From assembly GCF_024700885.2 (NCBI RefSeq), contig NZ_CP117016.1: a stretch of DNA of 64,000 nt; one strand, written 5' to 3'. Every line of letters begins with the position of its first letter. Position 1 is the stretch's first letter. The position numbers and the translations under genes were made by a program. Shown here in pieces: positions 44,706-62,757 of this stretch. The stretch comes from Escherichia coli. Lineage in GTDB: Bacteria; Pseudomonadota; Gammaproteobacteria; Enterobacterales; Enterobacteriaceae. Under the pieces are notes generated by a model. The model made no database searches, was not told the origin of the DNA, and saw nothing but the letters and a program-made list of their open reading frames with translations.

Positions 44706-45836
44706 TCAAATGACCAGTTTTTTCCATTCCTTACCGCGTGCATCGTTATAAATATCGGTCATTTTTTGATTCGAATGGCCTAGCAAAATTTTGGTATCAA
44801 CCCCCTGCTCTCTGAACAATCGCTCTGATAAAGATCTCTGCTCATGGAAAGAGGGTGGGGTGCCATTAGCACGCCAGTTGTAATCCACAGAATCCCGGGC
44901 TTTTTTAAATGCAACGGTTAATGTTGCTGGCTTAACCATCCCGCCGCGCTTAGCTGTCCCTTTCGCGTGATGGTGGTGCAATAGCCACGGACTAAGAACG
45001 CAATCGCGGCAGGATGACACTACATCATCCAGGGTGAGATTTAATTTATCGCAACGCAGAGCCAGAGGGATGGCAATCCGGGTTCCTGTTTTTTGCTGTT
45101 CGACATGAAGATAACCATCCCGGATATCCGAAAATTGCATTTTGCAAATATCTGAAAGGCGCTGGCCTGTCATCAGTGCCAGCAGCATACCGCGCTGTAA
45201 AAAGTAACCATCCTTTTCCGCTGCGTTATAAATCATCATCCACTCATCAAAAGTCAGTCGCTGTCTTGATATCCGCACCTGCGGTTTTTTTGCCGATTCT
45301 GCAGGGTTAAAGCCTGGCGGGACATCGCCCGTTTGCTGAGCTTCCCGGAAAACATCGATCAGTACTTTCCTGAAAATTTGTCCCATTCTGTTATGTCCTC
45401 TGGCCTTGTACTCTTCCAGTACTGATACCACATCTTTTACGGTTATGGCATCTAACGGTCTGGTGCCAAAACGTTCATCAAATACCCTGAGAGGGGCCGC
45501 TTTCTGTTTCAGCGTGTTGAGTTTGATCTCGCCGTTTTCATATCTTTCCTGTTGAATTTTTCTGTAATTATTCAGAAAAATGGTAACGGTTGATGAACCG
45601 CCGGTATCACTAATAATTTTCTCCTGCAGACTGAGCATTTGTTCCATTTGCTGCCGGGCAAGACGGCTGTTCGCTTCTGCTGCAATAGTTTCTGCCAGTT
45701 TCTGGTCAATACTGCCGAGACCGTGATTTTTGCCTGTTATGGGATGCCTGTAACGCCAGTAAACTTTGTTATTTCTTTTGTCAAAATACGGAGATAATCC
45801 CGGAACATCGGTTTTATATTTTCGCGGGCGCGCCAT
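44706..45836 (-). CDS. int: Phage tyrosine integrase
   Basis: 376-aa ORF ending at the ompW-proximal junction; C-terminal LLGHSNQKMTDIY box II with catalytic Tyr; overlaps the upstream xis gene by 23 nt. Confidence 0.9.
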   Translation of the reverse strand: MARPRKYKTDVPGLSPYFDKRNNKVYWRYRHPITGKNHGLGSIDQKLAETIAAEANSRLARQQMEQMLSLQEKIISDTGGSSTVTIFLNNYRKIQQERYENGEIKLNTLKQKAAPLRVFDERFGTRPLDAITVKDVVSVLEEYKARGHNRMGQIFRKVLIDVFREAQQTGDVPPGFNPAESAKKPQVRISRQRLTFDEWMMIYNAAEKDGYFLQRGMLLALMTGQRLSDICKMQFSDIRDGYLHVEQQKTGTRIAIPLALRCDKLNLTLDDVVSSCRDCVLSPWLLHHHHAKGTAKRGGMVKPATLTVAFKKARDSVDYNWRANGTPPSFHEQRSLSERLFREQGVDTKILLGHSNQKMTDIYNDARGKEWKKLVI

Positions 45837-46062
45837 CTTCCAGTATCCTCTTCAAAGCAGGGTGATCTGTGGCGATCACCTCCGGCTTGTTTACCATTCC
45901 GACAAAGCGAGCTTGCGGATCCACTCGCCAGCGTCTTCCAACTTTTTTGGGGAGAGGAAATATCATTCCGGCTTTAGCGTATTTACTTAACGTACTCGGA
46001 GTAGGGACCGGTTCACTGAATTCCTCTTTTGCCCACTCAGTGAGCAGAATAAGTCTTGCCAT
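45814..46062 (-). CDS. xis: Excisionase (lambda Xis-like)
   Basis: 82-aa ORF just upstream of and overlapping int; basic winged-helix-like core (GMIFPLPKKVGRRWRV). Confidence 0.65.
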   Translation of the reverse strand: MARLILLTEWAKEEFSEPVPTPSTLSKYAKAGMIFPLPKKVGRRWRVDPQARFVGMVNKPEVIATDHPALKRILEDGAPAKI

Positions 46063-46126
46063 GAGCGTCGTTCGCTAATCATGGTCGCCGCCACTATAGC
46101 TGGTGGGCAACGACCGGGGTTGAACA

Positions 46127-48571
46127 TTAAAAATCAGCCTGATTCGGGATCAGTTTTTGCCAGATAACTGAAACGTATTTTGCCTGGTAACGGGCGTCAT
46201 CAAGTGCATTATGGCGCTCACCTTCGAATGGAATAGCCGTTCTGGCATCGAAGTCTATGGCTTTCCCCAGCTCAACGATTGTGCGTACATCTCGATCGTT
46301 GTAGTAACGCCACGGGCAGGGGATCCCCTGCCGTTCGTATGAACGGCGCAAAATCGTGTTGTCGAAGTTGGCTCCATTTCCCCAGACCTGAACAAAAAAT
46401 TCACCGGAGTTTTCGTCGATAAATTCCCGCAATTGTAACAGTGCATCATCTAACGGGATTTCATCGGTCATAATGGCAGATTGCGCTTCGCGTGATTGCT
46501 TAAGCCACCATTTAATGGTGTCCCGATCAATGACCCCGCCAGCAGTTTCCAGATCGATAGTCTTACTAAATTCCGGTCCCATATCTCCGGTTTGCGGATC
46601 GAAAAATATTGCACCTATTGAGATGATCGGGGCATCAGGATTTTTTCCCATGGTTTCAAGGTCGATCATTAGATGGTCACACGTCCTGCTGGTGGATGTG
46701 ATAATGTAATGATCGTTCACCGTAATTAAGGGATCTGCCGTCTCGCCAGTTTCACTATCGCTGGCGTGATCCTGAGCGCTGCCAGCATTCTCCTTGTGTG
46801 GATGTTCAGCGCCTTCCATTTCCTTCGGATCATTTTCCTGAACTTCAACCTGATTCTCTTCATCGAATGTTTCCTGGTATGTTGCGTCGCCCATCACCGC
46901 GCCACAATCAGGGCAGTTACCGCCGCCGGTCTGACCGCAGGCGGTGCAGACTTTTTCCACTTCCTGTTGCGCCACTGGTTCAGGCTGTTTCGTTTCTGGC
47001 TCGTTTTGTTGCGTATTTGGGCTGTTTTGTTCCGCTTTCTGGTCGTTCTGTTCCGATTCTTGCTGGTTCTGGTTTACAGAATCGCGGGTTTCAATCCCCT
47101 TTACCCATTTCGGATCATTCGGGTCGCTAATCCCTGCAACAAATTCTCCGCGAGAGGCAGCCAGTAATTTGTCTGCATCGACAGGATTTTTGGGCGGAAT
47201 GTTTTTCCGGGCTTCATAGAGTTCTGCCCGCAGTTTCTGATATTTCGCATCAACAGAATTTACCTGTGACTGAGCATCCAGCGGCTGCGTGTCCTGATGA
47301 TGTTCAGTTGCATCCGGTTCCACTGTTTCAGCCGTTGCCTGTTCATCTGCCATTGCGCAAGATGGTTGCAGTTTTTCTTCATCATCCTGTTTTTCTTCTT
47401 CTGTTACACGCTGCGGCATCGGGGCAGAGGAACGACCGCAGGCAATATCCACGATTTCTGGATCAGGGTTGGCATGATCAGTTTCAGTCAGTACTTTGTT
47501 AAGATATTCAGTGACGTGTGCGGGGATAACCTCGATCCCAATTGGTGCTTCTTTTACGGACGCAACCACGATGGCGCGGGAATAATCCAGCCCGCCAGGC
47601 ATGGTGATGAATTTGTCGCGGAAAACAGAAAAGGGCGGTTTATTTTCAGCGATAATTTCCTCGACACGTTTAGCGTGTGCCGGATGAAGGTTATAAATGT
47701 CCACGTCCATTGAACGAGCCAGTACGCCAGTGGCTACGTCGCGCGCCAGTGACGTCAGATCGTGAACGAAACCTTCGCCGCGATCGGTGAGGTTCCCGCC
47801 GCCAGCATTAGCGCCGGAAGCCGTGCGCGTGATGCGTGAAACACGATTTCCTTTCATCCACTCTTTTGTCAGCAGACCGCGATCGGTGTAGTCTGCGTCC
47901 AGGTATGCTTCGAAAAAAGCAGTCATCAGCCCCAGGCTTGAATTGCCTGGATTAGGGAAAACTCTGTCAGTATCACGCACCAGTTTGTGGAGATCGCGAA
48001 TTTCCAGCGGGTCGAGCAGGCTGGTTTTGTGGGAAACAGCCAGGGCAGTAACAGCTGGTAGTTCTTCAGCTCGTGCAATGTGTAATGCCTGTAGTTCGTT
48101 GCGTGAAACGTGCGTTACCGGTTTTTCGCTGCCGTGTTGAGCAAGCCAGCGAATGGGCAGCTCCTGACCGGAAATCGGGAGTAGCATATTCTCCTCAATC
48201 TCCGTCATGTCTTCGCCATTAACATTGGTATTGTCAGTGCTGGCTGGCTTGTCCTGCGCAGAGGATGAGGGCGCGATAAATACCATTGTGATGCCATCTT
48301 CCCCGCCTTTTTCGTAACGGTTGCAGAATTCCGTATCAAATACGCCTTCTGGTGGAAGGTCATCAACAACGGGCAAATTGACGCGAACAGGTTTTTTAAA
48401 GTCATCTTCATCGTAGCCAGCATCGTCAATCGCAACAGCACCACGATAGATGGCAATGGATAATTTTTTCGCTTCAGCCCAGTAGAAACCGCCTTTAATA
48501 CCGAGACGTTTTCTTACTTTGTCATTTTTTGCTTCGTAATACAGTGGGTAAACTTGTTTATCGGTGCTCAT
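46127..48571 (-). CDS. Large early-region protein (814 aa) with C-terminal DEDDh (DnaQ-like) 3'-5' exonuclease domain
   Basis: C-terminal ~180 aa carry Exo I (MIDLETMG), Exo II ([12 protein letters not shown]) and Exo III (HNALDDARY) motifs; the central segment is highly acidic/low-complexity with a CxxC...CxxC zinc ribbon ([16 protein letters not shown]). Confidence 0.6.
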
Positions 48572-48670
48572 TGCTTTTTAACCTCAACTCAGATTAAAAT
48601 TAATGCGAGTGATGAATAAATGTCCCAGGTTCTTCACTCAGGCCTGCACAGTGTGCAGGCTTTCTTTTTT

Positions 48671-48946
48671 TCAGATTTCACCTTTTAATTTCATTGCAAT
48701 CAGAGTTGCCAGAAATTCGGCTTTTTTTTCTGCGGGCAGATTCTTTCCTATGTGCACCAGACACATTTTTTTAACACCATCGTTAAGTGTTTTAACGTTG
48801 CCTGTTGAACTGTCGATATCAACCACAGTGAATGGGGTTTCTTTATTTTCTGTTTTAATCACGTAGCCAATACGTTTTCCCTCCAGGATAACTTCGAGCA
48901 CAATGCCATCAGTAGTAACAATGGTGGCTTCATAACTGTTAATCAT
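48671..48946 (-). CDS. Hypothetical phage protein (91 aa)
   Basis: ATG at 48946 preceded by AAGGAG at 6-nt spacing (MINSYEATIVTTDGIVLEVILEGKRIGYV...); the 16-codon upstream extension in the track is rejected. Confidence 0.5.
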   Translation of the reverse strand: MINSYEATIVTTDGIVLEVILEGKRIGYVIKTENKETPFTVVDIDSSTGNVKTLNDGVKKMCLVHIGKNLPAEKKAEFLATLIAMKLKGEI

Positions 48947-49020
48947 GTTTTTCTCCTTAATTAAGGTTGAGCGAATCTCTGCCATTGCTGGCATAAATTC
49001 AGTTTTGAATAGTCAGTTAA

Positions 49021-49308
49021 TTAAAGTTCGTGTGCCATCTGGTATTTTTCGGCGCATTGCTTACAGCAGTATTTATGCTCCTTACGTGCAATAAGGGAAC
49101 CGTGCATATAAATAATTTCAGCGGTAAAGGCTTTTTCAGGTTCAATTTGTTTATTACAGAGCGTATATGCACAGGGAATTAAATCCGGGTCACCCTTTTG
49201 CTGGAGGATTTTTCTGATTCTCCACAGCCATTTTTTAATTCCGGTGTGACTGATGGTCTGCCTGGAGGCAGGCGTAAAACAATAATCAAGCATGGGGTTC
49301 ATATCCAT
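49021..49308 (-). CDS. Hypothetical Cys-rich phage protein (95 aa), possible zinc-binding
   Basis: ORF with clustered cysteines (PCAYTLC, KYCCKQC); same strand and operon context as neighbours. Confidence 0.4.
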   Translation of the reverse strand: MDMNPMLDYCFTPASRQTISHTGIKKWLWRIRKILQQKGDPDLIPCAYTLCNKQIEPEKAFTAEIIYMHGSLIARKEHKYCCKQCAEKYQMAHEL

Positions 49309-49318
49309 AGCTCCATTT

Positions 49319-49873
49319 TTATTTTAAGGAAAGCAACTGCTCTACGGTCATATTTTTAATTGCGCTCCGGTTTACAAGAGTCCAGCCTTGTTGCTCCAGA
49401 TAAAACAGGAAGGTATCCAGGGTGCAGACCATTGCGCCGTCAGGAACGGTTTCAGTGAATTTGATATTGCCGTGTTCGTCGAGACGGATAACCAGGGTGC
49501 GTCCGTCCCCGTGAATCATTTTGTCGGGAGACGGGGCGTTATTCTGGCGCAGTTCAGCTTCCATGCGGTCGAACTCAGCAATGTATGCCTCTTTAAATGC
49601 AGCGGCTTTTTTGCCAGTGAAGCCCATCACCAGGAAAACGAAGCCGTTTTTGGTGATTTGGTACATTGGGAGTTTGCGCCCGGTTGAGTCGGTGTATTCG
49701 CTCGACACAAAATTGTGCTCAGTGAATTTTGCTGAACAGTCCAGATTGCGAATTTTATCCAACACTCGTTCGTGGCGTTTGCCAAAGAACTCGGCGATCG
49801 CAACAGACGTAGTGACAGCGCGACCATTTTCGATGGTTACGTCAGGGTGAGAAAGGGTAAGGATAGTAGCCAT
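49319..49873 (-). CDS. Rha-family phage regulatory protein (184 aa)
   Basis: ATG at 49873 preceded by GGAGG; N-terminal motif VTTSVAIAEFFGKRHERVLDKIRNL and downstream PMYQITKNGFVFLVMGFTGKKAAAFKEAYIAEFDRME match the pRha pattern. The 100-codon upstream extension of the track ORF reads through a terminator hairpin and is rejected. Confidence 0.65.
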   Translation of the reverse strand: MATILTLSHPDVTIENGRAVTTSVAIAEFFGKRHERVLDKIRNLDCSAKFTEHNFVSSEYTDSTGRKLPMYQITKNGFVFLVMGFTGKKAAAFKEAYIAEFDRMEAELRQNNAPSPDKMIHGDGRTLVIRLDEHGNIKFTETVPDGAMVCTLDTFLFYLEQQGWTLVNRSAIKNMTVEQLLSLK

Positions 49874-50042
49874 GATGGCAGCCTCCGCGATGAATTTGAT
49901 TAACTCACCACCGAGGTTTTCCACGACCATAAGGGTGGTGAGACGTACAGGGGTGGAAATACCGGTCATCACGGAACCCGGCCAGCCTTGCGGCTGCCCT
50001 GCACGCCCCACCATAATGCGAATGTGGCTGTGCTTAACGCAT

Positions 50043-50064
50043 AAAAAAACCGCCTGAGCGCGGT
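50043..50064 (-). terminator. Rho-independent terminator downstream of the DicF-like sRNA
   Basis: On the minus strand, aaccgcgctcaggcggtt hairpin followed by TTTTTTT. Confidence 0.55.
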
Positions 50065-50352
50065 TATGCGCCGTGAATGATTTCGGGTTTCCACGCCCGG
50101 CACCCGTTTTATGAGGTGCAGGTGCACTATAATTCCACCCGTTCTGGTTTTCAATAGCTACATTCAACATTTTCTCTACCTTTCATCACCGAAGTGAACT
50201 TTGTTGATGCGGTGCCTGGTGCCTCCAGGTGATGTTAACCAGTTAACAATTAACGCCGGATACAGAGAATCCACCCATAACACTGTTTTTGGTTTTAACT
50301 GTTCCGCGTGCGCTGAGCCGCATTCACCGCATCACAAAATTCACTTTAAAAA

Positions 50353-50405
50353 GGGCGGCAGAGCAGTCACGGAGTAAAACTGATACCGCCAAAAGTCACC
50401 AGAAA
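50353..50405 (-). ncRNA. dicF: DicF-like sRNA (cell-division inhibitor sRNA of Qin-type prophages)
   Basis: Minus-strand 53 nt TTTCTGGTGACTTTTGGCGGTATCAGTTTTACTCCGTGACTGCTCTGCCGCCC differs at one position from the K-12 DicF sequence as I recall it; followed by a T-run. Confidence 0.65.
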
Positions 50406-50737
50406 ATTGATAACAGAGGGCGTTGCAGCGGAGTTGTCACTTAAGCGTATGGTCAACCTGACAACCCGGTGTCCTCAACGGGGGAAGGAATAACCCCGCC
50501 ATACTTACCGCCGCGCCATTTCGCGGAGTGCCACAACCGGAAGCGCACGGTCGAACTAAATTTAACGACACCGTACAGAGAGACCAATTTCGCCGTGCGC
50601 TTTCGCGTTATGCCCTGACTTTTCAGGGACATATCCTTTCAGTAAACTGTCAGTGCCGGATGTTCACCCGTGTCCGGCGCACGCACTCCACCTGACCCGT
50701 GGAGAACTCCTTAATTACCAACCCTCAGGAGGGTGAA

Positions 50738-51016
50738 ATGGATAAAAAGCAAATTGAGGCCCTGCAATCTATTATTGAAAAACAAGATGAAGCTATCAGG
50801 ATTCTTTCATATCGCACTGATATGATACTAAATATGCTTTCTGCATTAACGGCTGCGCTTGGTGGTACAAAAACAAACGTATACCGCGAAGTTGTTATTC
50901 AACAGATAGATAAATTTGAAAAAACCATACCAGGTATTAATGCTCATCTTGCAGAACAAGAGAAAGACCATGCTCTTATGGCAATTTCTTCAGTAGCTCT
51001 CCCGAAAGTTGAGTAG
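50738..51016 (+). CDS. Hypothetical AT-rich cargo protein (92 aa), convergent to the neighbouring minus-strand operon
   Basis: ATG at 50738 preceded by AGGAGG at 6-nt spacing (MDKKQIEALQSIIEKQDEAIRILSYRTDMILNMLSALTAALGG...); local GC is clearly below the flanks; 3' end overlaps the convergent 137-aa gene by 41 nt. Confidence 0.5.
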   Translation: MDKKQIEALQSIIEKQDEAIRILSYRTDMILNMLSALTAALGGTKTNVYREVVIQQIDKFEKTIPGINAHLAEQEKDHALMAISSVALPKVE

Positions 51017-51389
51017 TTTTAATTGTTGTTTTGAAATAATCACTGCTTTCACATTTGAGTGATTTCATGGCAATCCAAATGCGGGCCTCTGTGCCTGCAT
51101 TTGGTTCCAGTTGCTGTAGACGTTTTGCGTCTTCCAAAAGTAAGGCGATAATGTGTTTCAGCTTCTCATCATTTGCTTGATTCTTGTTTTCAGGCGAATT
51201 CTGTCCGCCGAATAGGCGCTTCTCTTCATACAGACCTATAAAGGCACGACGCACGTTACCGGATATAGTATCGATGGTTTCCTTTTCTACAGTACTCAGG
51301 TCAAGAGTCGCCAGTTGAGAGCGAACCACATTCGATGCCATTTCCTGGAATGGTACTGGTAAATCTTTAAATTCCATCGTCAACCTCAT
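50976..51389 (-). CDS. Hypothetical phage protein (137 aa; alternative start at 51377 after GAGG)
   Basis: ORF whose ATG overlaps the stop of the upstream gene (ATGA), suggesting translational coupling. Confidence 0.5.
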   Translation of the reverse strand: MRLTMEFKDLPVPFQEMASNVVRSQLATLDLSTVEKETIDTISGNVRRAFIGLYEEKRLFGGQNSPENKNQANDEKLKHIIALLLEDAKRLQQLEPNAGTEARIWIAMKSLKCESSDYFKTTIKTTQLSGELLKKLP

Positions 51390-51541
51390 CAGTCAGTGTT
51401 TCTGGTTAACCAGCGACGTGCGCCAGCTTCAGTTTTAAACGTTTTGCTTCTGGTATATGTCATCGCGGTAAACGTGCCGTCCTGGTTGGGAAACACGCCG
51501 CATACCAGAGATTCGTTGTTGCCAAGCTCGATAGTATCCAT
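51389..51541 (-). CDS. Small YdfA-like protein (50 aa)
   Basis: ATG at 51541 preceded by GAGG (MDTIELGNNESLVCGVFPNQDGTFTAMTYTRSKTFKTEAGARRWLTRNTD); it is the first gene after the repressor terminator, as ydfA follows dicA in Qin. The track ORF extends 27 codons upstream. Confidence 0.45.
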   Translation of the reverse strand: MDTIELGNNESLVCGVFPNQDGTFTAMTYTRSKTFKTEAGARRWLTRNTD

Positions 51542-51783
51542 GCTGACCTCATTTCCCCTTAACGCCGGGGTAGCGGAACAAAAACCTGCTGCATAGTTAT
51601 TAAAGTTGAACCCTGCCGTCATGTTCTTACGCCTCGGGCTGGCTACTTACCCCCTGACCACTGCTTGGTAACTCGAAGTATTGCCCGGCGTTCTGTGGGG
51701 CGGGGTGGGTTGGTATGTTGTTAAGGTAACAAGAGTTACCTTTCGAGTCAATACAATGTTGCAAAAGGTACATTTGAGGGCAT

Positions 51784-51807
51784 AAAAAACCCGCAATGAA
51801 TGCGGGT
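51784..51807 (-). terminator. Rho-independent terminator immediately after the cI-like repressor gene
   Basis: On the minus strand, acccgcattcattgcgggt hairpin followed by TTTTTTAT, starting 7 nt after the repressor stop. Confidence 0.6.
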
Positions 51808-51813
51808 TCTGAC

Positions 51814-52488
51814 TCAGTCTAAGTATTGATGTATTTGTGAAACTTTACCTTTAATGGTGTAACCACCATTCAGTTCGATGGGTTTGTAAAGCGGATTCAG
51901 TGACAACAGATAGATGTTTGGTCCGTCAATCGCAACTTTTTTTAGTGTTACGTTTGGCGTTCCTTCCAATTGGATTAAGATTATTTTTCCCACCAGTTCT
52001 CTAATGTTACTTGAGCATGGTGTGATCAGCACGGTAGATCCGTCGGGGATGGTTGGGAGGCCGTTAGAGTTTGTCATCGCATCTCCCTCAACATGCAATA
52101 AAAAAGAGTTTTCAGCGGTTTTTGTCATGACATCAACCCAGTTCTTAATACCAGGAATCTTGGTTACTGGACAACTCATATCCCAATAACCAGCCTGTTC
52201 CCACGTTAAAACGGGCAACCGGGCGATGTTGTCACTAATGTAAGGGTACTGATTCAGACGCAGATCATCGGTTTTATCGTGACCGTCCTTTCCATAAAGA
52301 ATCCATTCAGGAGATTTGGAAAGCAATTTTGACAGTAGATACAAATTCTCACCGTCAGGTTTTGAAGAGCCATTTTCCCATTTTGTTACGGATACACGAG
52401 ATATGCCGATTGCTTTCGCAACCTGCTGTTGGGTTAATCCAACGTCTTTTCGACGATTCCGAATACGTTCGCTGATAGTGTTTTTCAT
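51814..52488 (-). CDS. cI: CI-like prophage repressor (HTH_XRE plus S24 LexA-like peptidase domain)
   Basis: N-terminal XRE HTH (GLTQQQVAKAIGISRVSVTKWENG) and C-terminal S24-like domain; divergent from the cro-like gene. Start chosen at ATG 52488 (MKNTISERIR..., 224 aa, no SD, compatible with a leaderless PRM-type transcript); alternative start at 52530. Confidence 0.8.
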   Translation of the reverse strand: MKNTISERIRNRRKDVGLTQQQVAKAIGISRVSVTKWENGSSKPDGENLYLLSKLLSKSPEWILYGKDGHDKTDDLRLNQYPYISDNIARLPVLTWEQAGYWDMSCPVTKIPGIKNWVDVMTKTAENSFLLHVEGDAMTNSNGLPTIPDGSTVLITPCSSNIRELVGKIILIQLEGTPNVTLKKVAIDGPNIYLLSLNPLYKPIELNGGYTIKGKVSQIHQYLD

Positions 52489-52550
52489 GTAACCAATGTT
52501 ACTACCAAGTGATGTTGCTATGGTTGACATTGTTATGTAACTATTGTTAC
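52489..52550. promoter_or_regulatory. Putative operator/divergent-promoter region between cI and cro
   Basis: Two 14-bp inverted repeats of the same form, GTAACCAATGTTAC (52489-52502) and GTAACTATTGTTAC (52537-52550), plus a TTGACA hexamer at 52524-52529. Confidence 0.4.
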
Positions 52551-52579
52551 CCTTCTGCTCGAAATAACAGGAGAGTTTT

Positions 52580-52795
52580 ATGTTCAAAGATGATGTTCTG
52601 CGCTATTTCAAAAAAAAGCGACTAGTAGCTGAGGCTCTTGGAATTTCACATGTGGCTGTTGTGCGGTGGAAAGCAGTTATTCCCAAACTTCGCGCAATGG
52701 AACTGGATGAAATTACTAACGGTGAATTGAAATACAACCCAGAACTTTACAAGAAGCAGGATAGCACCTCGAACGAAGGAAAGAATGATTCATGA
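52580..52795 (+). CDS. cro: Cro-like / YdaS-family HTH regulator (71 aa)
   Basis: Small HTH ORF (RLVAEALGISHVAVVRWKAVIP) divergent from cI; AGGAG RBS; stop overlaps the next gene (ATGA). Confidence 0.7.
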   Translation: MFKDDVLRYFKKKRLVAEALGISHVAVVRWKAVIPKLRAMELDEITNGELKYNPELYKKQDSTSNEGKNDS

Positions 52796-53217
52796 AAATC
52801 AAGCATGAACACATCCGCATGGCGATGAATGCCTGGGCGCATCCGGACGGCGAAAAAGTACCGGCTGCGAAAATTACCAAAGCGTATTTCGAGCTGGGAA
52901 TGACGTTCCCGGAACTGTATGACGACAGCCATCCGGAAGCCCTGGCCCGTAATACCCAGAAAATTTTCCGTTGGCTGGATAAAGACACCCCTGATGCTGT
53001 TGAAAAAATGCAGGCTCTGTTACCGGCGATCGAAAAGGCGATGCCGCCTTTGCTGGTGGCCCGTATGCGCAGCCACAGTTCTGAATATTACCGTGAGATC
53101 GTCGAACGGAGGGATCGGCTGGTGAAGGATGTCGATGATTTTGTTGCGTCAGCGGTTGTTTTGTATGACCAGATGAATCGCGGCGGCCCGGCAGGGAATG
53201 CTGTGGTGATGCACTAA
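52792..53217 (+). CDS. YdaT-family protein (141 aa), CII-position gene
   Basis: Starts MKIKHEHI and ends ...VVMH, like Rac YdaT; translationally coupled to the cro-like gene. Confidence 0.65.
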   Translation: MKIKHEHIRMAMNAWAHPDGEKVPAAKITKAYFELGMTFPELYDDSHPEALARNTQKIFRWLDKDTPDAVEKMQALLPAIEKAMPPLLVARMRSHSSEYYREIVERRDRLVKDVDDFVASAVVLYDQMNRGGPAGNAVVMH

Positions 53218-53239
53218 AAGCACGGTGTTCGGGGGTTTT

Positions 53240-54202
53240 ATGAGCAGCAAGCTTCATGGTCTTGTCTGGGAAGGGTGCGCCTTCACCGGCATGATCTTAT
53301 CCAGGGTGGCGGTTATGGCCCGTCTTGCAGACTACAGCAATGACGAGGGCGTGTCATGGCCTGCCATTGAAACTATCCGGCGTCAGATCGGTGCAAGAAG
53401 TGAATCCACAGTGAAATCGGCTATTGCAGAACTGGCGAAAGAGGGCTGGCTGACGAAGGAAGAGCGTAAGGTCGGTGGGCGTAATGTAAGCAATATCTAT
53501 CGGCTTAATGTGGAAAAACTCGAAGCAGCTGCGGCGGCGGCGCGTGAGTCATATAAACCGAAAAGAAAAATTAGCCCGGCAAAAAATGACCCGTTAACAG
53601 TTGACCCGTCAAATATTGACCCCTCAACGGTTGACCCGTCAAATTTTGATGGATCAACTGTTGATAAAAAACTGCCGATTAGGGGGCCGATGATTGACCC
53701 CGATCCGTCAGTATTAAAACCTGATCCGTCAGATAAAAGATCTTCTTGTCCGGACGCTTCGCAACCGGACCCGCAGACGGCTGAACAGGATTTTTTAACC
53801 CGACACCCTGACGCGGTTGTGTTCAGTGCGAAAAAACGCCAGTGGGGAAGTCAGGAAGATTTGGTGTGCGCACAGTGGATCTGGGGACGAATCGTGAGTC
53901 TTTACGAGCAGGCGGCCAGCTATGATGGCGAGATCACTAGACCGAAAGAACCCAACTGGACAGCATGGGCCAATGACGTTCGCACAATGCGGATGCTGGA
54001 TGGCAGAACTCACAGACAAATTTGTGAAATGTTTGGGCGTCTCCAGCGGGATTCGTTCTGGGTAAAAAACATCATGAGTCCGGCAAAACTCCGGGAAAAA
54101 TGGGATGAACTGGTTATCCGCCTGGGGCGTTCGCCTGCGCAGCGTTGCGTGAATCACATTTCTGAACCGGACACTGAAATACCGCCGGGATTCAGGGGGT
54201 GA
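53240..54202 (+). CDS. Replication initiator (lambda O-like / YdaU-like) containing the putative origin iterons
   Basis: ATG at 53240 preceded by GGGGG; N-terminal winged-helix-like region; iterons lie inside the coding sequence; followed by a DnaC-like gene. Confidence 0.6.
   Translation: MSSKLHGLVWEGCAFTGMILSRVAVMARLADYSNDEGVSWPAIETIRRQIGARSESTVKSAIAELAKEGWLTKEERKVGGRNVSNIYRLNVEKLEAAAAAARESYKPKRKISPAKNDPLTVDPSNIDPSTVDPSNFDGSTVDKKLPIRGPMIDPDPSVLKPDPSDKRSSCPDASQPDPQTAEQDFLTRHPDAVVFSAKKRQWGSQEDLVCAQWIWGRIVSLYEQAASYDGEITRPKEPNWTAWANDVRTMRMLDGRTHRQICEMFGRLQRDSFWVKNIMSPAKLREKWDELVIRLGRSPAQRCVNHISEPDTEIPPGFRG
53586..53726. repeat. Putative phage replication origin: iterons within the O-like gene
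   Basis: Repeated TGACCCGTCAA-type motifs at 53586-53599, 53600-53614, 53616-53629 and 53629-53644, related ATCCGTCAG copies at 53703-53726, and an A-rich stretch at 53661-53671. Confidence 0.5.
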
Positions 54203-54208
54203 CGTGTC

Positions 54209-54955
54209 ATGAAAAACATTGCGGCAGTTGGGGTTCTTGAACGTATTCGCAGACTTGCACCACAGGGGTCGGTTCCACCGTACCGGACGGTGGAGGAGTG
54301 GCGGGAATGGCAACTTGCTGAAGGACGAAAACGCAGCGAGGAGATTAACCGCCAGAATCGCCAGTTGCGGGTGGAAAAAATCCTGAATCGTTCGGGCATC
54401 CAGCCTCTGCACAGCAAATGCTCGTTTGCAAATTATCAGGTGCAGAACGACGGGCAAAAATACGCGCTGAGCCAGGCCAAATCCATAGCTGACGAACTGA
54501 TGACCGGGTGCACGAATTTTGTGTTCAGCGGTAAAACCGGCACCGGGAAAAATCACCTTGCAGCGGCGATGGGCAACCGGCTGATGGTGAAGGGGCGCAG
54601 CGTGATTATCGTCACCGTGTCTGACGTCATGAGCGTGTTGCATGACAGCTACGACAACGGCAAATCCGGGGAAAAATTTTTACAGGAGCTTTGCGGGGTT
54701 GATTTGCTGGTCCTGGATGAAATAGGCGTTCAGCGGGAGACGAAAAACGAGCAGGTGGTATTGCACCAGATAATTGATCGCCGGACAGCATCACTGTGCA
54801 GTGTCGGGATGTTAACAAACCTGAATCATGCCGCAATGAGTACGCTTCTTGGTGAGAGGATTATGGACCGCATGACCATGAACGGTGGTCGATGGGTGAC
54901 GTTTAACTGGGATAGCTGGCGTCCAAATGTCAGCAATATGAGGGTTGTGAAGTAA
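54209..54955 (+). CDS. DnaC-like helicase loader (IstB-like AAA+ ATPase)
   Basis: Walker A GKTGTGKNHL and Walker B LLVLDEIG; 248 aa; directly after the initiator gene. Confidence 0.8.
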   Translation: MKNIAAVGVLERIRRLAPQGSVPPYRTVEEWREWQLAEGRKRSEEINRQNRQLRVEKILNRSGIQPLHSKCSFANYQVQNDGQKYALSQAKSIADELMTGCTNFVFSGKTGTGKNHLAAAMGNRLMVKGRSVIIVTVSDVMSVLHDSYDNGKSGEKFLQELCGVDLLVLDEIGVQRETKNEQVVLHQIIDRRTASLCSVGMLTNLNHAAMSTLLGERIMDRMTMNGGRWVTFNWDSWRPNVSNMRVVK

Positions 54956-54976
54956 TTTTGTCCGGAGGAAATTTTA

Positions 54977-55747
54977 ATGGAAACCGTATCTGACGCACTG
55001 AAAGCACTGAAAAAAGCCTCTTCACATGTGGTGGCAGCTCGCCTTGGAATCAGTCGTGAAGAGGCTGTCAACGAGCTGTGGGAACTCAAAAGAAATGGCG
55101 TCGTTGATAAAACTGGTCACACCTGGTTTCTGGCTGGCGAAGGTGAATCCCGGGTAACCGAAGAGCGGCCAGTAAAATCTGAAGCACAGGATATGCTGAC
55201 CGGGGAGGTCGAACAAAAAGTTACCGCAGACATGATGATTGAGTTTATCGGTCAGGATGGGGCTAAAACGTGTGAGGAACTGGCGGGTAAGTTCGGTGTC
55301 AGTACTCGCAAGGTTGCTTCCACGCTGGCGGTGGTAACCGCAACGGGGCGGCTGGCACGCGTTAATCAGAACGGTAAATTTCGTTACTGCATGCCGGGCG
55401 ATAATTTACCAGCAGAGCCGAAAGCCGCGCTGGTAACGGAAAGTGATGGTAAGGCCTTTCCTCAGCCAGCAGGTGCTGCGTTACCAGTCCGGGAAGCCGC
55501 AACACAGGAAGAAATTAAAACAGAAACTGTGGCGGACATTGTGCAGCCGTTGCCATCGTTTACCGAAACGCAAGCAGATGAGCTGATTTTTCCGTCCCTT
55601 CGCAGGGCAAACCTGGCGCTGCGCAGGGCGAAAAGTGATGTTCAGAAGTGGGAGCGAGTCTGCGCCGCGCTGCGGGAGCTGAACAAGCACCGGGATATTG
55701 TTCGACAGATTACTGATTCTTCCCGCCGTGTTGTATCGGAAAAGTGA
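54977..55747 (+). CDS. Hypothetical phage protein (256 aa) with two winged-helix-like segments
   Basis: ORF with RBS-like GGAGG upstream; segments VAARLGISREEAVNELWELKRNGVV and CEELAGKFGVSTRKVASTLAVV resemble HTH units. Confidence 0.45.
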   Translation: METVSDALKALKKASSHVVAARLGISREEAVNELWELKRNGVVDKTGHTWFLAGEGESRVTEERPVKSEAQDMLTGEVEQKVTADMMIEFIGQDGAKTCEELAGKFGVSTRKVASTLAVVTATGRLARVNQNGKFRYCMPGDNLPAEPKAALVTESDGKAFPQPAGAALPVREAATQEEIKTETVADIVQPLPSFTETQADELIFPSLRRANLALRRAKSDVQKWERVCAALRELNKHRDIVRQITDSSRRVVSEK

Positions 55748-55762
55748 TTGCCGGAGGCGCTT

Positions 55763-56185
55763 ATGGCAAAAGTATTTACACAAGAAGAGCGGGAAAAAAT
55801 TAAAGGGCAGGTTGTTGAACTTGTACGTCTGAGCGGTCGCGAGACGTTGCGGCAACTGGAAGCCAAGACAGGTGCGACAAGATATCTGATGAGTGTTCTC
55901 GCCAGAGAGCTGGTTGCCAGTGGCGATGTATACAACTCTGTTTACGGGTTATTCCCGTCTGAACAGGCGCGTAAGGACTGGCAAAACGCCCGCAAAAAAC
56001 TCTCAAGGGCAAATCTGAAGAAACCATCTGTGGTTGATCCTGACCTTATCTGGACATTACCCGACGGAGAAATACGCCGCTACGACAGGCGTATGAACAT
56101 AATCTGTCGCGAGTGCCGGAAGAGTGAAGTTATGCAGCGCATATTGTCGTTTTATCAGGGTGATGTTCGGTATTTATTGAAGTGA
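55763..56185 (+). CDS. Hypothetical phage protein (140 aa)
   Basis: ATG at 55763 preceded by GGAGG at 5-nt spacing (MAKVFTQEEREKIKGQVVELV...). Confidence 0.45.
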   Translation: MAKVFTQEEREKIKGQVVELVRLSGRETLRQLEAKTGATRYLMSVLARELVASGDVYNSVYGLFPSEQARKDWQNARKKLSRANLKKPSVVDPDLIWTLPDGEIRRYDRRMNIICRECRKSEVMQRILSFYQGDVRYLLK

Positions 56186-56352
56186 CGAGATTAAAGTGCA
56201 TTAGTTCAGATGCAAATTGACATTTTGTGGCACAGGGTAGAGCTAGCGTGGTTGTCCGCTTTGTGCCAGAAGCGGACATAGCAGGTGCCAGATGCATTTG
56301 TTATTCTTCATTGAATTGAGCAGTATCCTTAACAGGAACTCTGAATACATAA

Positions 56353-56991
56353 ATGAAGATGAAAAACATGTCTGAAGTGTTGACCCAAGAAAAGCTTATT
56401 TTTGTTGCCCAGAGACTAAATGCCCTCGCGCAGTCAGGCCTGACCTATTCAAAAGACGTCTTTGACAAGGAACGCTATGAAGCCTTGCGTGAAATTGCCG
56501 CTGGACTGCTGAGTTCGCAGTTTGATATTAGCCGCAATGATTTGTTTCATGTATCGGAAACGGGTTACGCGACGCCCAAAACAGATGTGCGTGCGTTTAT
56601 CCTGCGTAATAATCGTATTCTGATGGTGAAAGAGGCTGCAGATGGATTATGGAGTCTTCCTGGCGGATGGGCAGATGTTGGAGATACACCTTCTGAAGCT
56701 GTGCGTCGAGAGGTCGAAGAAGAAACCGGATTAAAAGTCAGAGTGACTAAACTATTGGGAGTTTGGGATCGTAATCTTCACGGCCATCCGCCTTTACCCT
56801 GGCATGTTTACAAGCTGATTTTTCTCTGTGAAGAAGTAGGTGGCAGCCTGTCAATCAGCCATGAGTCACTCGATGCTGATTTTTTTGATGTCAACGACCT
56901 GCCTGAATTGTCGCTTTCAAGAATTGTGCCTGAGCAGATTGCTGTCAGCCTGAGAGTAGCGAAAGGTGATGAAAAAACATGGTTTGATTAA
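56353..56991 (+). CDS. NUDIX hydrolase with Nudix_N-type N-terminal domain (prophage cargo)
   Basis: Nudix box GGWADVGDTPSEAVRREVEEETGL (Gx5Ex7REUxEExGU); N-terminal ~60 aa resemble the Nudix N-terminal extension of ADP-ribose pyrophosphatase-type enzymes. Start may be 56359 or 56368. Confidence 0.8.
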   Translation: MKMKNMSEVLTQEKLIFVAQRLNALAQSGLTYSKDVFDKERYEALREIAAGLLSSQFDISRNDLFHVSETGYATPKTDVRAFILRNNRILMVKEAADGLWSLPGGWADVGDTPSEAVRREVEEETGLKVRVTKLLGVWDRNLHGHPPLPWHVYKLIFLCEEVGGSLSISHESLDADFFDVNDLPELSLSRIVPEQIAVSLRVAKGDEKTWFD

Positions 56992-57020
56992 CTTTCTTCT
57001 GCAACCATTAAGGAATGGCA

Positions 57021-57659
57021 ATGATATTCAACGCTAAGGGTTTTTTATTCGATATGGACGGTACGCTGGTTGATTCAACAGCCGTAGTGGAAAGCGTCTG
57101 GAGAGATTTTTGTGCAGAATACGGTCTTGATACTCAGGCTGTGATTGCTTACGCACACGGGCGGCAAACGATTGATACACTGACGCATTTTATTGGTGCA
57201 GGTGAGAAAACCAATAAAATCGCGGCCTCACTCGAAGAGGTTGAAATCAACACGACAGAAGGCGTTACTGAAGTAAAAGGGGCCGCTGCACTCTTATCAA
57301 AACTGCCACCGGATAGCTGGGCACTTGTTACTTCTGCAGGCAGAATGCTTGCCGAAAACAGGATGAAAGCGGCTAATCTCCCCTTACCCATAGTAATGGT
57401 GTGTGCAGAAGATGTAATGACGGGAAAACCAAGTCCCGAGGGTTACATCAAAGCAGCTTTGGCTTTGGGCCTTGAGCCTGGTGAATGCGTGGTATTTGAG
57501 GATGCATCTGCGGGTATAAAAGCAGGGCTGGCAAGTGGAGCTTCGGTAATAGCTGTTCAGCCTGACGCTCTGGGATCATCTGAAGCCCATGCCGTCAGCG
57601 AGCTGTCTGACATTATGGTCAAGATTTCCGGAGAACGTTTCAATATCATCTGTGGTTAA
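57021..57659 (+). CDS. HAD-superfamily phosphatase (beta-phosphoglucomutase-like subfamily)
   Basis: Motif I FDMDGTLVDS, motif II VTSAG, motif IV EDASAGIKAG; ATG at 57021 is 6 nt after AAGGA; 29 bp downstream of the Nudix gene. Confidence 0.8.
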   Translation: MIFNAKGFLFDMDGTLVDSTAVVESVWRDFCAEYGLDTQAVIAYAHGRQTIDTLTHFIGAGEKTNKIAASLEEVEINTTEGVTEVKGAAALLSKLPPDSWALVTSAGRMLAENRMKAANLPLPIVMVCAEDVMTGKPSPEGYIKAALALGLEPGECVVFEDASAGIKAGLASGASVIAVQPDALGSSEAHAVSELSDIMVKISGERFNIICG

Positions 57660-57922
57660 TCACGTTACACAATACGCATCAATGGACGCTGAGTAGTTCG
57701 CGAGTTTTAAACTTCCAACGTCCGCTTTTCGCTCAAAGCGGACTAGAAGGTTAGCTTGCGTCGGACTTGGCGTATTTAAAGAAGTGCTGGTGGTGACTGG
57801 TTGTTGTGTTCCATTTCTACAGAACAAAATCACAGAAACTATACCCAATAGTTGTATTGAATCACTGACGAGACAGCCTCATATTTATCAGGACTGGTGT
57901 ACGTCCAATACAGGAGGTTGTG

Positions 57923-58012
57923 GTGCTGGTTCTCAAATGTGCGCTGGCTATTGCTGCTGTAATGGCAATTTATTGCCTTGCTGTTGTTCTTATGGATCGC
58001 CTTTCTGATTGA
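57923..58012 (+). CDS. Candidate small hydrophobic peptide (29 aa) with strong Shine-Dalgarno
   Basis: AGGAGG at 57912-57917, then GTG at 57923 (or 57920); translation MLVLKCALAIAAVMAIYCLAVVLMDRLSD has a single predicted TM helix and charged tail; not in the ORF track (<60 aa). Confidence 0.3.
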   Translation: MLVLKCALAIAAVMAIYCLAVVLMDRLSD

Positions 58013-58223
58013 TTTCATATTGGCGAGGTGACGGGAGTTAAGTAGAATGGCTGCGGGTGCTTGAGGCTATCTGTCTCAGGCATGAACACCAAAGGCAGAT
58101 AGAGAAAAGCCCCAGTTAACATTACGCGTCCTGCAAGACGCTTAACATTAATCTGAGGCCATATCTATGCTCTACACACGTAGGTTAGCCTCTTACGTGC
58201 CGAAAGGCAAGGAGAAGCAGGCT

Positions 58224-58379
58224 ATGAAGCAGCAAAAGGCGATGCTAATCGCCCTGATCGTCATCTGTTTAACCGTCATGGTGACGGCACTGGTAACGAG
58301 GAAAGACCTCTGCGAGGTACGAATCCGAACCGGCCAGACGGAGGTCGCTGTCTTCACAGCTTACGAACCTGAGGAGTAA
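58224..58379 (+). CDS. hok: Hok/Gef-family type I toxin (51 aa), near-identical to HokD/RelF
   Basis: MKQQKAMLIALIVICLTVMVTALVTRKDLCEVRIRTGQTEVAVFTAYEPEE; the in-frame upstream extension in the track (from 58167) is not the toxin start. Confidence 0.85.
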   Translation: MKQQKAMLIALIVICLTVMVTALVTRKDLCEVRIRTGQTEVAVFTAYEPEE

Positions 58380-58447
58380 GAGACCCGGCGGGGGAGAAAT
58401 CCCTCGCCACCGCTGATGTGTCAGGCATCCTCAACGCACCCGCACTT

Positions 58448-58474
58448 AACCCGCTTCGGCGGGTTTTGTTTTTT
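58448..58474 (+). terminator. Rho-independent terminator after hok
   Basis: aacccgcttcggcgggtt hairpin followed by TTGTTTTTT. Confidence 0.65.
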
Positions 58475-58546
58475 CTGGTCGTTCTGGTTTACAATCCATC
58501 CGTCAGCCTGAACAACTGGCACCTGCTGCGCCAGCAGAGAAAACAG

Positions 58547-58825
58547 ATGGCGCACGATACCAAATTTTACAATTCGGATAACTCTGCCGCCCCTGCCAGC
58601 AGGCACGGGCGGCGTTCTCATGCATTCAAATCTGACTGGTATCAGCACGACCCCTGCACCGAAGAACAGGCTGAATGGCTCATTCAGTGTTACCGCAGGC
58701 GCGGATGCGAGGTTAAAAAAGCCCTTAGCCTCGACTACCGTCACTGGATAATCTCCGTCAGGCTCCCTTACTCAGAACGGCCAGCGCGTCCGTCCCGCAC
58801 ATTCCAGCAACGGATCTGGAGGTAA
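58547..58825 (+). CDS. Hypothetical protein (92 aa), Rem-position gene
   Basis: ATG at 58547 after the hok terminator (MAHDTKFYNSDNSAAPASRHGRR...); occupies the slot between hok and the DUF968-like gene, as rem does in Qin. Confidence 0.4.
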   Translation: MAHDTKFYNSDNSAAPASRHGRRSHAFKSDWYQHDPCTEEQAEWLIQCYRRRGCEVKKALSLDYRHWIISVRLPYSERPARPSRTFQQRIWR

Positions 58826-58826
58826 T

Positions 58827-59885
58827 GTGCGGGTATTACTTCGACCTGTTCTGGTACCGGAACTCGGTCTGGTTATCGTTAAGCCAGGCCGTGAATCAAT
58901 GTCAGCATTCCATAACGGCAGAATACTGGTGGAGCCGGAACCAAAAAGCATGCGTAATCTGCCGTCCGGGGTCGTTCCTGCCGCTCGCCAGCCGCTGGTG
59001 GAAGACAAAACATTGCTGCCGTTTTTCAGTAACGCACGGGTGATTCGTGCTGCTGGTGGTGCTGGTGCATTGTCTGACTGGCTGTTGCGCCATATTAAAT
59101 CCTGCCAGTGGCCACACGGCGATTATCATCACAGCGAAACCGTCATTCACCGTTATGGTACCGGCGCAATGGTGTTGTGCTGGCACTGCGACAACCAGCT
59201 GCGTGACCAGACATCCGAATCACTCGGGCAACTTGCTCATCAAAACCTGTCAGCATGGATGATTGACGTCATCGGTCACGCAATAAGCGGTACGCAGGAG
59301 CGTGAATTATCTCTGGCTGAATTATCCTGGTGGGCGGTCCGCAATCAGGTGGCGGACGCGCTACCGGAAGCGGTATTACGTCGTTCGCTGGGGTTGCGTG
59401 CGGAAAAAATTCGCTCTGTGTACAGTGAAAGCGACATCATACCGGGAGAGCAGACCGCCACCAGCATACTGAAGCAGCGCACAAAAAATATTGCGTTACT
59501 GCCTCACGTCCACCAGCAACAGAACCCACCACAGGAAAAGACGGTGGTCAGCATTGCCGTTGATCCGGAGTCACCGGCTCAGTATCTCCAGCGCCAGAAA
59601 TCACAACGGGAAGAGATGCCTGTATACACGCGCTGGGTAAAAACGCAGAAATGCATGACGTGTGGCAATCAGGCAGATGATCCGCATCACATCATTGGTC
59701 ATGGACTGGGAGGGATGGGAACAAAGGCTGATGATTTGTTTGTTATTCCGTTATGCCGTAAATGCCGTAACGAACTACATGCCGGAGTAAAAGATTTTGA
59801 AGAGAAACACGGCAGTCAGCTGTTGTTGCTGATTCGTTTTTTAATGCACGCGAGAAATTCGGGTGTTCTGAAGTGGAAAGCATAA
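58827..59885 (+). CDS. DUF968-like protein (YdfU-like, 352 aa)
   Basis: GTG at 58827 preceded by GGAGG; Cys/His-rich C-terminal segment (CMTCGNQADDPHHIIGHGLGG...CRKCRNELH); synteny hok-rem-ydfU as in Qin. Confidence 0.55.
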   Translation: MRVLLRPVLVPELGLVIVKPGRESMSAFHNGRILVEPEPKSMRNLPSGVVPAARQPLVEDKTLLPFFSNARVIRAAGGAGALSDWLLRHIKSCQWPHGDYHHSETVIHRYGTGAMVLCWHCDNQLRDQTSESLGQLAHQNLSAWMIDVIGHAISGTQERELSLAELSWWAVRNQVADALPEAVLRRSLGLRAEKIRSVYSESDIIPGEQTATSILKQRTKNIALLPHVHQQQNPPQEKTVVSIAVDPESPAQYLQRQKSQREEMPVYTRWVKTQKCMTCGNQADDPHHIIGHGLGGMGTKADDLFVIPLCRKCRNELHAGVKDFEEKHGSQLLLLIRFLMHARNSGVLKWKA

Positions 59886-60266
59886 ATGACCGAGCGCATA
59901 GAATTTGTTTTACCTTACCCGCCGACGGTGAACACTTACTGGCGACGCCGTGGCAGCACATATTTTATCTCGGAGGAGGGAAAGCGTTATCGCCGGGCTG
60001 TGGCGCTTATTGTTCGCCAGCAGCGGCTGAAATTAAGCCTGTCCGGAAGGCTGGCGATAAAGGTGATTGCAGAGCCACCGGATAAGCGTCGTCGCGACCT
60101 GGACAATATCCTGAAAGCACCGCTGGATGCGCTGACGCATGCGGGAGTGTTAATGGACGATGAGCAGTTTGATGAAATCAATATCGTTCGTGGTCAGCCA
60201 GTATCTGGTGGACGTCTGGGGGTGAAGATTTACCCCATAATGCATGAAGAGCAGGTCAAAAAATGA
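59886..60266 (+). CDS. rusA: RusA-family Holliday-junction resolvase
   Basis: 126-aa ORF with MTERIEFVLPYPPTVNTYWRRRG and the catalytic-region motif DKRRRDLDNILKAPLDALTHAGVLMDDEQF. Confidence 0.75.
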   Translation: MTERIEFVLPYPPTVNTYWRRRGSTYFISEEGKRYRRAVALIVRQQRLKLSLSGRLAIKVIAEPPDKRRRDLDNILKAPLDALTHAGVLMDDEQFDEINIVRGQPVSGGRLGVKIYPIMHEEQVKK

Positions 60267-61084: not shown

Positions 61085-61165
61085 TGTTGTTGATTTTTCC
61101 CGAATCTGTGGTAAATTTGCTCTAACGATGGGCGTTTTATGCCTGACGTTAGAAGATTTTTTACA

Positions 61166-61188
61166 CCCCGCCGCCTGGCGGGTTTTTT
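61166..61188 (+). terminator. Rho-independent terminator downstream of the Q-like gene (tR'-like)
   Basis: cccgccgcctggcggg hairpin followed by TTTTTT. Confidence 0.65.
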
Positions 61189-61310
61189 ATGACTGAAATC
61201 GCGTCAGTACAGTAAACGCGCTGGTGGCGGTGAATACCTGTCTTTCAGCTTGCTGGCTTTTTCGACAAGAGTTATTGGTGTGTCACGTTAACCGGAAAAG
61301 GGAAAAAGAC

Positions 61311-62708: not shown

Positions 62709-62757
62709 AACGGATGAGATTGCAGAATTAATTACGCACCATTATTATTCTGCTTCC

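Follow-up and report, generated by a model that had tools for sequence, protein, structure and literature searches.

A lambdoid prophage of Escherichia coli carries, at the distal end of its early left operon, a gene in which the N-terminal region and linker of RecE are joined to a DEDDh-type nuclease domain. The gene lies on the minus strand at positions 46127-48571 of the window, by which we mean the whole stretch of 64,000 nucleotides analysed here (NCBI RefSeq assembly GCF_024700885.2, contig NZ_CP117016.1), and it encodes a protein of 814 amino acids (aa). Judged by alignment, homology to RecE of the Rac prophage breaks at the boundary between linker and nuclease, and the DEDDh domain sits in place of the PD-(D/E)XK nuclease of RecE. 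We read the protein as a 3'-5' DNA exonuclease on a RecE scaffold, an accessory processor of DNA ends made from the early left operon of a phage that probably relies on the RecBCD and RecA functions of its host, and we give this reading an even chance of being right. It starts from direct observations, namely the architecture, the break in RecE homology, the intact catalytic residues, the purifying selection on the N-terminal domains, the absence of an annealase, and a constant position before xis and int. Public databases already annotate the protein with both of its domains, and a class of lambdoid phages with a nuclease only was described in 2025.

A RecE-type N-terminal region with a DEDDh nuclease domain

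The coding sequence is a single uninterrupted open reading frame (ORF) followed by its stop codon in the ORF list of the window, as an earlier note on this DNA had it. It is 100% identical in DNA to a gene of E. coli MLI114, and its product is identical to the RefSeq protein WP_032279702.1, named "exonuclease" by the Prokaryotic Genome Annotation Pipeline (PGAP). The N-terminal domain, which that note had called unknown, proved to be the N-terminal region of RecE. First, in BLASTP comparisons aa 48-616 are 79% identical to residues 40-591 of the Rac RecE of strain K-12, with no significant alignment to Rac RecE past its residue 591, our aa 616. Second, Pfam Exonuc_VIII (PF06630) matches aa 53-189 with an E value of 2e-36. 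Third, the NCBIfam RecE equivalog model NF007259 is matched over profile positions 1-603 of 877 only, with a score of 1171.1 bits that falls below the cut-off of 1269 bits. Pfam gave no match to the PD-(D/E)XK nuclease domain (DUF3799/PF12684) anywhere in the protein; besides Exonuc_VIII and the Rv2179c-like family, its only other match was a weak one to RNase_T, again in the C-terminal domain. The earlier note had named full-length homology to RecE, with a PD-(D/E)XK fold instead of DEDDh, as what would speak against it: homology to RecE is present, but it does not run the full length, and the PD-(D/E)XK fold is absent.

We ran AlphaFold2 on the full-length protein with an alignment of 50%-identity representatives. 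A small alpha/beta domain, termed module A1 (aa 1-101; 48269..48571, minus strand), and the helical domain common to RecE, termed module A2 (aa 114-390; 47402..48232, minus strand), are both modelled with confidence and are separated by a disordered loop. The first ~100 residues differ from the rest of the RecE-type region in that they represent a diverged allele, 30% identical to the corresponding part of Rac RecE. The function of the N-terminal ~600 residues of RecE was described as unknown in a 2023 review (PMC11611040), although the N-terminus is known to count in linear-linear recombineering (Fu et al., 2012, cited in PMC11611040). A clue from solved structures was sought for the N-terminal module and given up, the best 50 of 313 Foldseek matches in AFDB50 being all members of the same family. 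Within the RecE-type helical domain, conservation is highest in a glycine-rich loop, GNRVSxIxRTxSGxNAGGGxxTDR (aa ~241-264; ~47780-47850, minus strand), whose NAGGG is found in 20 of 49 long representatives of the family and bears no resemblance to a Walker motif.

Between the helical domain and the nuclease lies an acidic, Q/N-rich linker (aa 391-620; 46712..47401, minus strand), delimited by composition, by the AlphaFold2 model and by the RecE alignment, which reaches aa 616. The acidic, low-complexity centre reported earlier is thus confirmed: aa 381-620 contain 22% D/E, 8% K/R and 17% Q/N, with a net charge of -34 and an isoelectric point (pI) of 4.2, and aa ~390-628 are predicted to be mostly disordered, with a predicted local distance difference test (pLDDT) score below 50 at aa 390-437, 491-540 and 557-628. 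Three islands interrupt the disorder, that is, a helix (aa 439-456), a short motif (aa 466-490) and a CxxC knuckle (aa 541-556). The motif (aa 466-488; 47108..47176, minus strand) includes GISDPxDPxW, which occurs in 27 of the 49 long 50%-identity representatives, with either type of nuclease attached. It reaches a pLDDT of 65-80 in the full-length model and may serve as a docking site for a partner. The CxxC-x7-CxxC element (aa 542-556; 46904..46948, minus strand), which resembles a zinc knuckle, consists of CTAC at aa 542 and CPDC at aa 553, is also present in Rac RecE, and has a pLDDT of ~62. The ribbon that the earlier note had singled out is therefore there, but it is inherited from RecE and is no special feature: with only 7 of 49 long representatives carrying it, we rejected it as a defining trait, and consider GISDPxDPxW the likelier functional element of the linker.

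The composition of the linker had also led to the suggestion that the protein counters restriction or another host defence. The acidic segment would then mimic DNA, and the nuclease would destroy some molecule of the defence, for instance retron msDNA or a signalling oligonucleotide. The strong negative charge and the place of the gene in an early operon are in keeping with this idea, and Rac RecE is reported to set off a retron system by means of its nuclease activity. However, the acidic segment is the usual linker of RecE and shares 73-86% identity with its counterpart in Rac RecE, and more distant relatives of the DEDDh type have other linkers that lack the zinc ribbon. It is also the fastest-evolving part of the protein, with a ratio of nonsynonymous to synonymous substitution rates (dN/dS) of 0.2-0.7, up to 0.74. 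Unlike DNA mimics of the Ocr and ArdA type, which present a rigid, folded acidic surface, it is predicted to be disordered and offers no rigid surface shaped like DNA; no homology to such mimics was found, and searches of Pfam, PHROGs and the PDB gave no likeness in sequence or fold to known anti-restriction proteins. We found nothing to support the suggestion and hold it to be very improbable; the alternative that was offered with it, an unusual recombination exonuclease, is the better supported of the two.

The C-terminal domain (aa 621-814; 46130..46711, minus strand) is of the DnaQ/DexA/Rv2179c-like DEDDh type, as its motifs had indicated before. Pfam PF16473 (Rv2179c-like 3'-5' exoribonuclease) matches aa 633-804 over model positions 2-177 of 177 with an E value of 5e-67, and RNase_T (PF00929) matches the same domain weakly. 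The founding member of the PF16473 family is a mycobacterial stand-alone enzyme, Rv2179c, described as acting on RNA. Residues D637, E639, D737, H787 and D792 align with D7, E9, D119, H186 and D191 of DexA from phage T4, and these five catalytic residues are invariant in all 11 aligned sequences, T4 DexA included. T4 DexA (PDB 8KEL) is the sole significant sequence match in the PDB and also the best fold match; at E <= 0.001 Foldseek returned T4 DexA, RNase T, oligoribonuclease, CRN-4 and ERI2, while ERI1 and 3'hExo fell just short of this limit. The TM-scores are modest (TMt ~0.5) because the full-length model was used as the query. The block-mean pLDDT of the domain is 84-94 at aa 631-750 and 42-62 from aa ~751 to the C-terminus. 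Since the catalytic residues are invariant and the domain matches DexA, RNase T and oligoribonuclease, it is very probably a catalytically competent 3'-5' exonuclease. The C-terminal "...ADF" was considered as a motif resembling the tail of single-stranded DNA-binding protein (SSB) and dropped, as it is not kept in more distant relatives.

Family, modular evolution and genomic context

Among 1.84 billion representatives clustered at 50% identity, 283 proteins were found at E <= 1e-30, of which the long ones were classified against the segments of the query and the RecE nuclease; a database clustered at 90% was swamped by near-identical E. coli proteins, so that the diversity came from the 50%-identity search. 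The RecE-type N-terminal module is combined with a DEDDh domain in 16 representatives and with the RecE PD-(D/E)XK nuclease in nine, down to 25-40% identity, and the fusion with DEDDh, in the same genomic position, is kept in relatives down to 35-40% identity. The likeness to Rac RecE takes in the helical domain, the acidic linker, its motif and the CxxC...CxxC element; the difference is that Rac RecE continues into its own PD-(D/E)XK 5'-3' nuclease (residues ~600-866), which is absent from the 814-aa protein, where DEDDh stands instead.

A third arrangement is found in an 823-aa "exonuclease" of EC958, Tritos and mEp460_ev081. Its C-terminal part, which takes in the linker motif, the zinc ribbon and the DEDDh domain, is 92% identical to aa 465-814 in EC958; for the DEDDh domain, the identity amounts to 98% with Tritos and 95% with mEp460_ev081. 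Its first ~470 residues, on the other hand, form another N-terminal module that has only a distant sub-domain in common with the RecE type. Like the 814-aa gene, it stands before xis-int and has no annealase, in the order dicB-ydfD-exo-xis-int. The 823-aa gene lies at L005:4582-7053 and L013:6564-9035 among our loci. YdfE_C Pfam matches on related DEDDh-type representatives were faint at three loci and unmarked at one. These matches, together with the gene order, suggest that the 823-aa exonuclease is the full-length form of YdfE from the Qin prophage of K-12, and that YdfE is its truncated N-terminus.

The breakpoints between these arrangements, at aa ~102-113, 465 and 616, all fall in segments predicted to be disordered. 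Synonymous divergence (dS) of the DEDDh segment is 0.02-0.04 between the prophage of the window and those at loci L004, L005 and L013, which is far below the 0.25-0.32 of the adjacent linker and suggests that recombination has recently made the 3' end of the gene uniform among otherwise diverged prophages. These facts could also be taken to mean that the gene is a scar, in which an illegitimate or homologous exchange replaced the RecE nuclease, recT and the genes downstream, and a non-functional chimera has since hitch-hiked in prophages. In favour of this are the breakpoints in disordered linkers, the recent spread of the DEDDh segment by recombination, and the fact that some copies, for instance that at locus L003, are pseudogenes. 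Against this, the architecture and position are kept down to the low identities given above, the catalytic residues are invariant, and the folded N-terminal domains are under purifying selection, to judge from dN/dS values of 0.12 for A1 (aa 1-101) and 0.08 for A2 (aa 114-380). Viable phages also carry the gene, among them Tritos, HannyBb, mEp460_ev081 and phages encoding Shiga toxin 2a (Stx2a). We attach hardly any credence to a non-functional scar.

The genomic context separates the two nuclease types. On the minus strand the window has a cI-type repressor (51814-52587), small genes of the pL operon, Rha (49319-50170, a 283-aa ORF), a YdaE-family gene (49021..49308; NCBIfam YdaE_coli), a RacC-like gene (48671..48994; NCBIfam PRK09790, 180 bits), the 814-aa gene, the excisionase gene (45814..46062) and the integrase gene (44706..45836), the last gene of the prophage, which adjoins ompW; Rha, the excisionase and the integrase were taken from the ORF list and the PGAP annotation of an identical locus. 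The 814-aa gene is the last cargo gene at the distal end of a CI-repressed pL-type operon; the earlier note, too, had assigned it to an operon of this type. The ydaE and racC genes also precede recE in Rac (order racC-recE-recT), at the equivalent place in the pL operon, but Rac recE is followed by recT, ralR and rcbA, none of which comes after the 814-aa gene.

That no annealase adjoins the gene, so that it forms no standard RecET or Red pair, was stated before and holds on closer inspection: xis comes next, and family scans found no annealase beside the gene or among the ORFs of the pL operon. The prophage next to ompW looks complete, with terminase, portal, capsid and tail genes present in the ~49-kb stretch of the same genome that runs from the tail-fibre genes to int, and the PGAP annotation of this stretch lists no RecT, Bet, Erf, Sak or NinB. 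Nor does it contain SSB, Gam or Abc2, judged from annotation and PHROGs names only.

The genes that follow were compared over a sample of 16 loci, which are not independent of one another. The DEDDh-type gene is directly followed by xis or int at all 11 loci examined, namely those of the window, a pseudogene copy in ECL27977, phage 640R1, EC958, Tritos, mEp460_ev081, and the representatives P0133, P0145, P0151, P0131 and P0135. At the five loci of the PD-(D/E)XK type, by contrast, another gene occupies the annealase slot, and it encodes RecT in four (K-12 Rac, P0144, P0148 and P0254). In the fifth, P0149, the RecE homologue is followed by a 271-aa protein of phrog_3657 (L043:6565-7380, in a Rac-like prophage), which is not RecT and gave no match in Pfam or the PDB. 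This pattern of nuclease type and context holds across wide divergence. The 271-aa protein is in its own right a candidate for an unrecognised annealase or another partner of RecE.

Other lambdoid phages carry the DEDDh family without the RecE-type module. These stand-alone relatives, annotated "Exo" in mEp235 and epsilon34 and "DnaQ-like exonuclease" (gp34) in phage LLS, belong to the same operon and are 57-58% identical to aa ~632-810; at 180-190 aa, without N-terminal module or linker, they bear out the earlier remark that the 814-aa protein is about four times larger than a stand-alone enzyme. The mEp235 homologue (58% identical) lies between SSB and Abc2 and beside a Rad52-type annealase, that is, in a canonical recombination (Rec) module, whereas the 814-aa gene has no such partner; LLS gp34 (57% identical) lies directly before xis-int, as does the 814-aa gene. 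The mEp235 and LLS relatives tie the DEDDh family to lambdoid DNA metabolism.

The gene family is abundant. At least 80% of the query gene is covered in 1242 of 5426 complete E. coli genomes, and DNA of the DEDDh domain is present in 4047 of them (75%), at up to seven places per genome and mostly at nucleotide identities of at least 95%. The domain is also found in Stx2a-converting phages, in the "PPompW" prophages of enterohaemorrhagic E. coli, and in the complete-genome phages Tritos, HannyBb and PhiR42_1.

Such abundance, at up to seven places per genome, would suit a prophage defence or superinfection-exclusion nuclease, in which the DEDDh domain would degrade the modified DNA of incoming phages (5-hydroxymethylcytosine, 5hmC; HREX) or the 3' ends of RNA phages, the N-terminal region being auxiliary. 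There are two precedents. EcD, a stand-alone E. coli homologue of DexA, breaks down DNA that contains 5hmC and shields the cell from T4 (Kang et al., 2025, PMC12153337). The TONDO exonucleases, prophage enzymes of the DEDDh type that carry unrelated auxiliary domains, confer protection from the RNA phages MS2 and Qbeta (Santos et al., 2026 preprint, PMC13344964). DexA and EcD have the same fold and the same five catalytic residues as the domain studied here, which is 30% identical to DexA and, over aa 635-807, 37% identical to the putative EcD, although both are enzymes that stand alone. On the other side, the residues proposed to read 5hmC in DexA are replaced here, W152 aligning to Y757 and D169 to A771, with the alignment uncertain in the loop around D169. 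The TONDO screen was confined to proteins of less than 500 aa and concerns a different DEDDh clade (PMC13344964). PADLOC gave no match for the 814-aa gene or its neighbours, and close homologues are found inside a recombination module. Moreover, with the gene last in a CI-repressed operon and without a convincing promoter of its own, expression in the lysogen is not expected: consensus promoter sites proved to be rarer than in shuffled sequence, with not one upstream of the gene, on which basis we rejected an own promoter that would permit such expression. Taken together, we think a defence role quite unlikely.

Two further observations concern EcD. D90 of DexA, a residue of the tetramer, is A78 in EcD and D709 in the 814-aa protein, so that the loss seen in EcD is not shared. 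The putative EcD is a 189-aa stand-alone DEDDh protein on the minus strand of locus L024 (IMG/VR UViG 2671181127_000013), with five similar loci; it fits the published EcD forward primer exactly and the reverse primer bar one base, has A78, is 37% identical to our protein (E value of 2e-33) and 27% to T4 DexA, and probably represents the EcD described by Kang et al. (2025).

Chi sites and the possible role of the nuclease

The prophage is rich in Chi sites, with 12 on the top (conventional) strand and four on the bottom strand, where 3.0 and 1.0 would be expected from trinucleotide content. The part of it that lies in the window (44706-64000) has 14 Chi in 19.3 kb, ten of them on the plus strand, and the adjacent chromosome has nine in 44.7 kb. 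One Chi lies inside the exonuclease gene (46688-46695) and another just after it (46099-46106). DnaQ-like 3'-5' nucleases are one of four nuclease types recognised in lambdoid Rec modules, with sporadic DnaQ-type genes near int (Zheng et al., 2025, Genome Res, PMC12315714). The same work describes phage Tritos as the prototype of a Chi-rich class whose members encode a nuclease but lack an annealase, SSB and any inhibitor of RecBCD, with Chi counts that range from 21/6 to 7/2, and proposes that phages without a recombination system of their own use Chi and the RecBCD of the host (PMC12315714). An early-left nuclease gene without annealase, SSB or anti-RecBCD gene, together with the excess of Chi, fits this class.

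Against this background, the enzyme would be a Mg2+-dependent 3'-5' exonuclease that, in the lytic cycle, acts at the ends of DNA or on single-stranded tails. The RecE-type N-terminal module, together with the conserved linker motif, would form a targeting or docking unit that works independently of RecT and of the polarity of resection. The phage itself would probably depend on the RecBCD and RecA of its host for recombination-dependent growth, because it has no annealase and, by annotation, no recognised inhibitor of RecBCD, and is rich in Chi. The nuclease is probably neither a recombinase of the Red or RecET type nor an anti-restriction protein, and it may contribute to recombination by trimming, by pathway choice or by scavenging.

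Several points weigh against this reading. A 3'-5' exonuclease removes the 3' tails that the RecA/RecBCD pathway needs, and, according to Zheng et al. (2025, PMC12315714), exonucleases of the DnaQ type as a rule inhibit recombination, so that a role in favour of it is not self-evident. The Chi enrichment follows the preferred orientation of the chromosome and may in part reflect amelioration of a resident prophage. Pfam names the PF16473 family an exoribonuclease, and that DNA is the substrate is inferred; the relatives DexA and EcD act on DNA, and Rv2179c is described as acting on RNA. The N-terminal module is acidic (pI ~5) and has no match to a solved fold in the PDB, its targeting role being one that we infer. 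Finally, we found no experiment on a fusion of the RecE N-terminal region with DEDDh in the searchable literature.

A bolder version of the accessory-processor reading would make the N-terminal module, with its conserved GISDPxDPKW linker motif, an autonomous delivery unit, which docks nucleases of opposite polarity (PD-(D/E)XK, 5'-3'; DEDDh, 3'-5') onto a repair or replication complex of the host, with the DEDDh version actively reshaping the processing of ends by the host, for example by trimming 3' tails and so steering the choice between RecBCD and RecF pathways on phage DNA, and not serving as a merely passive nuclease. We regard it as unlikely. If true, it would offer a first functional handle on ~600 residues of RecE, which matters in that RecE/RecT is a workhorse of recombineering. 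A conserved N-terminal module under strong purifying selection is combined with two mechanistically opposite nucleases, and since the DEDDh form occurs without RecT, the function of this module should depend neither on RecT nor on 5'-3' resection, a limit that leaves fewer hypotheses to be considered. We did not find an explicit prior account of a RecE N-terminal module shared by nucleases of opposite polarity, of RecT accompanying the PD-(D/E)XK version only, or of a conserved linear motif in the RecE-type linker. More broadly, should the protein prove to have a genuine role in the DNA metabolism of phages, or in defence, a large part of the prophage biology of E. coli would be concerned, because the DEDDh domain occurs in about three quarters of complete genomes of this species, Stx-converting phages and ompW prophages included.

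Other features of the prophage

Minor features of the locus were recorded as well. Between the racC-like gene and the exonuclease gene, a perfect 10-bp hairpin, GCCTGCACA/TGTGCAGGC (48640-48662), has the form of an intrinsic terminator only when the plus (antisense) strand is read. Rfam models place DicF at 50353-50404, isrK at 50043-50119 and a C4 antisense RNA at 49931-50018, upstream of or overlapping the 5' end of the Rha ORF, whose annotated start is probably too far upstream. This stretch (49931-50404, minus strand) looks like an antirepressor-type module controlled by C4 and isrK, placed where related phages have dicB-ydfD; dicB is present at this locus as a fragment only. The cargo of the nin region (56600-58300; also L001:2193-4219) consists of one hydrolase each of the NUDIX and HAD families and a hokD/sok toxin-antitoxin pair, whose sok RNA lies at 58055-58229. 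Further along the window there are two tRNA genes (62758-62830 and 62934-63007) and STnc100 (63707-63896).

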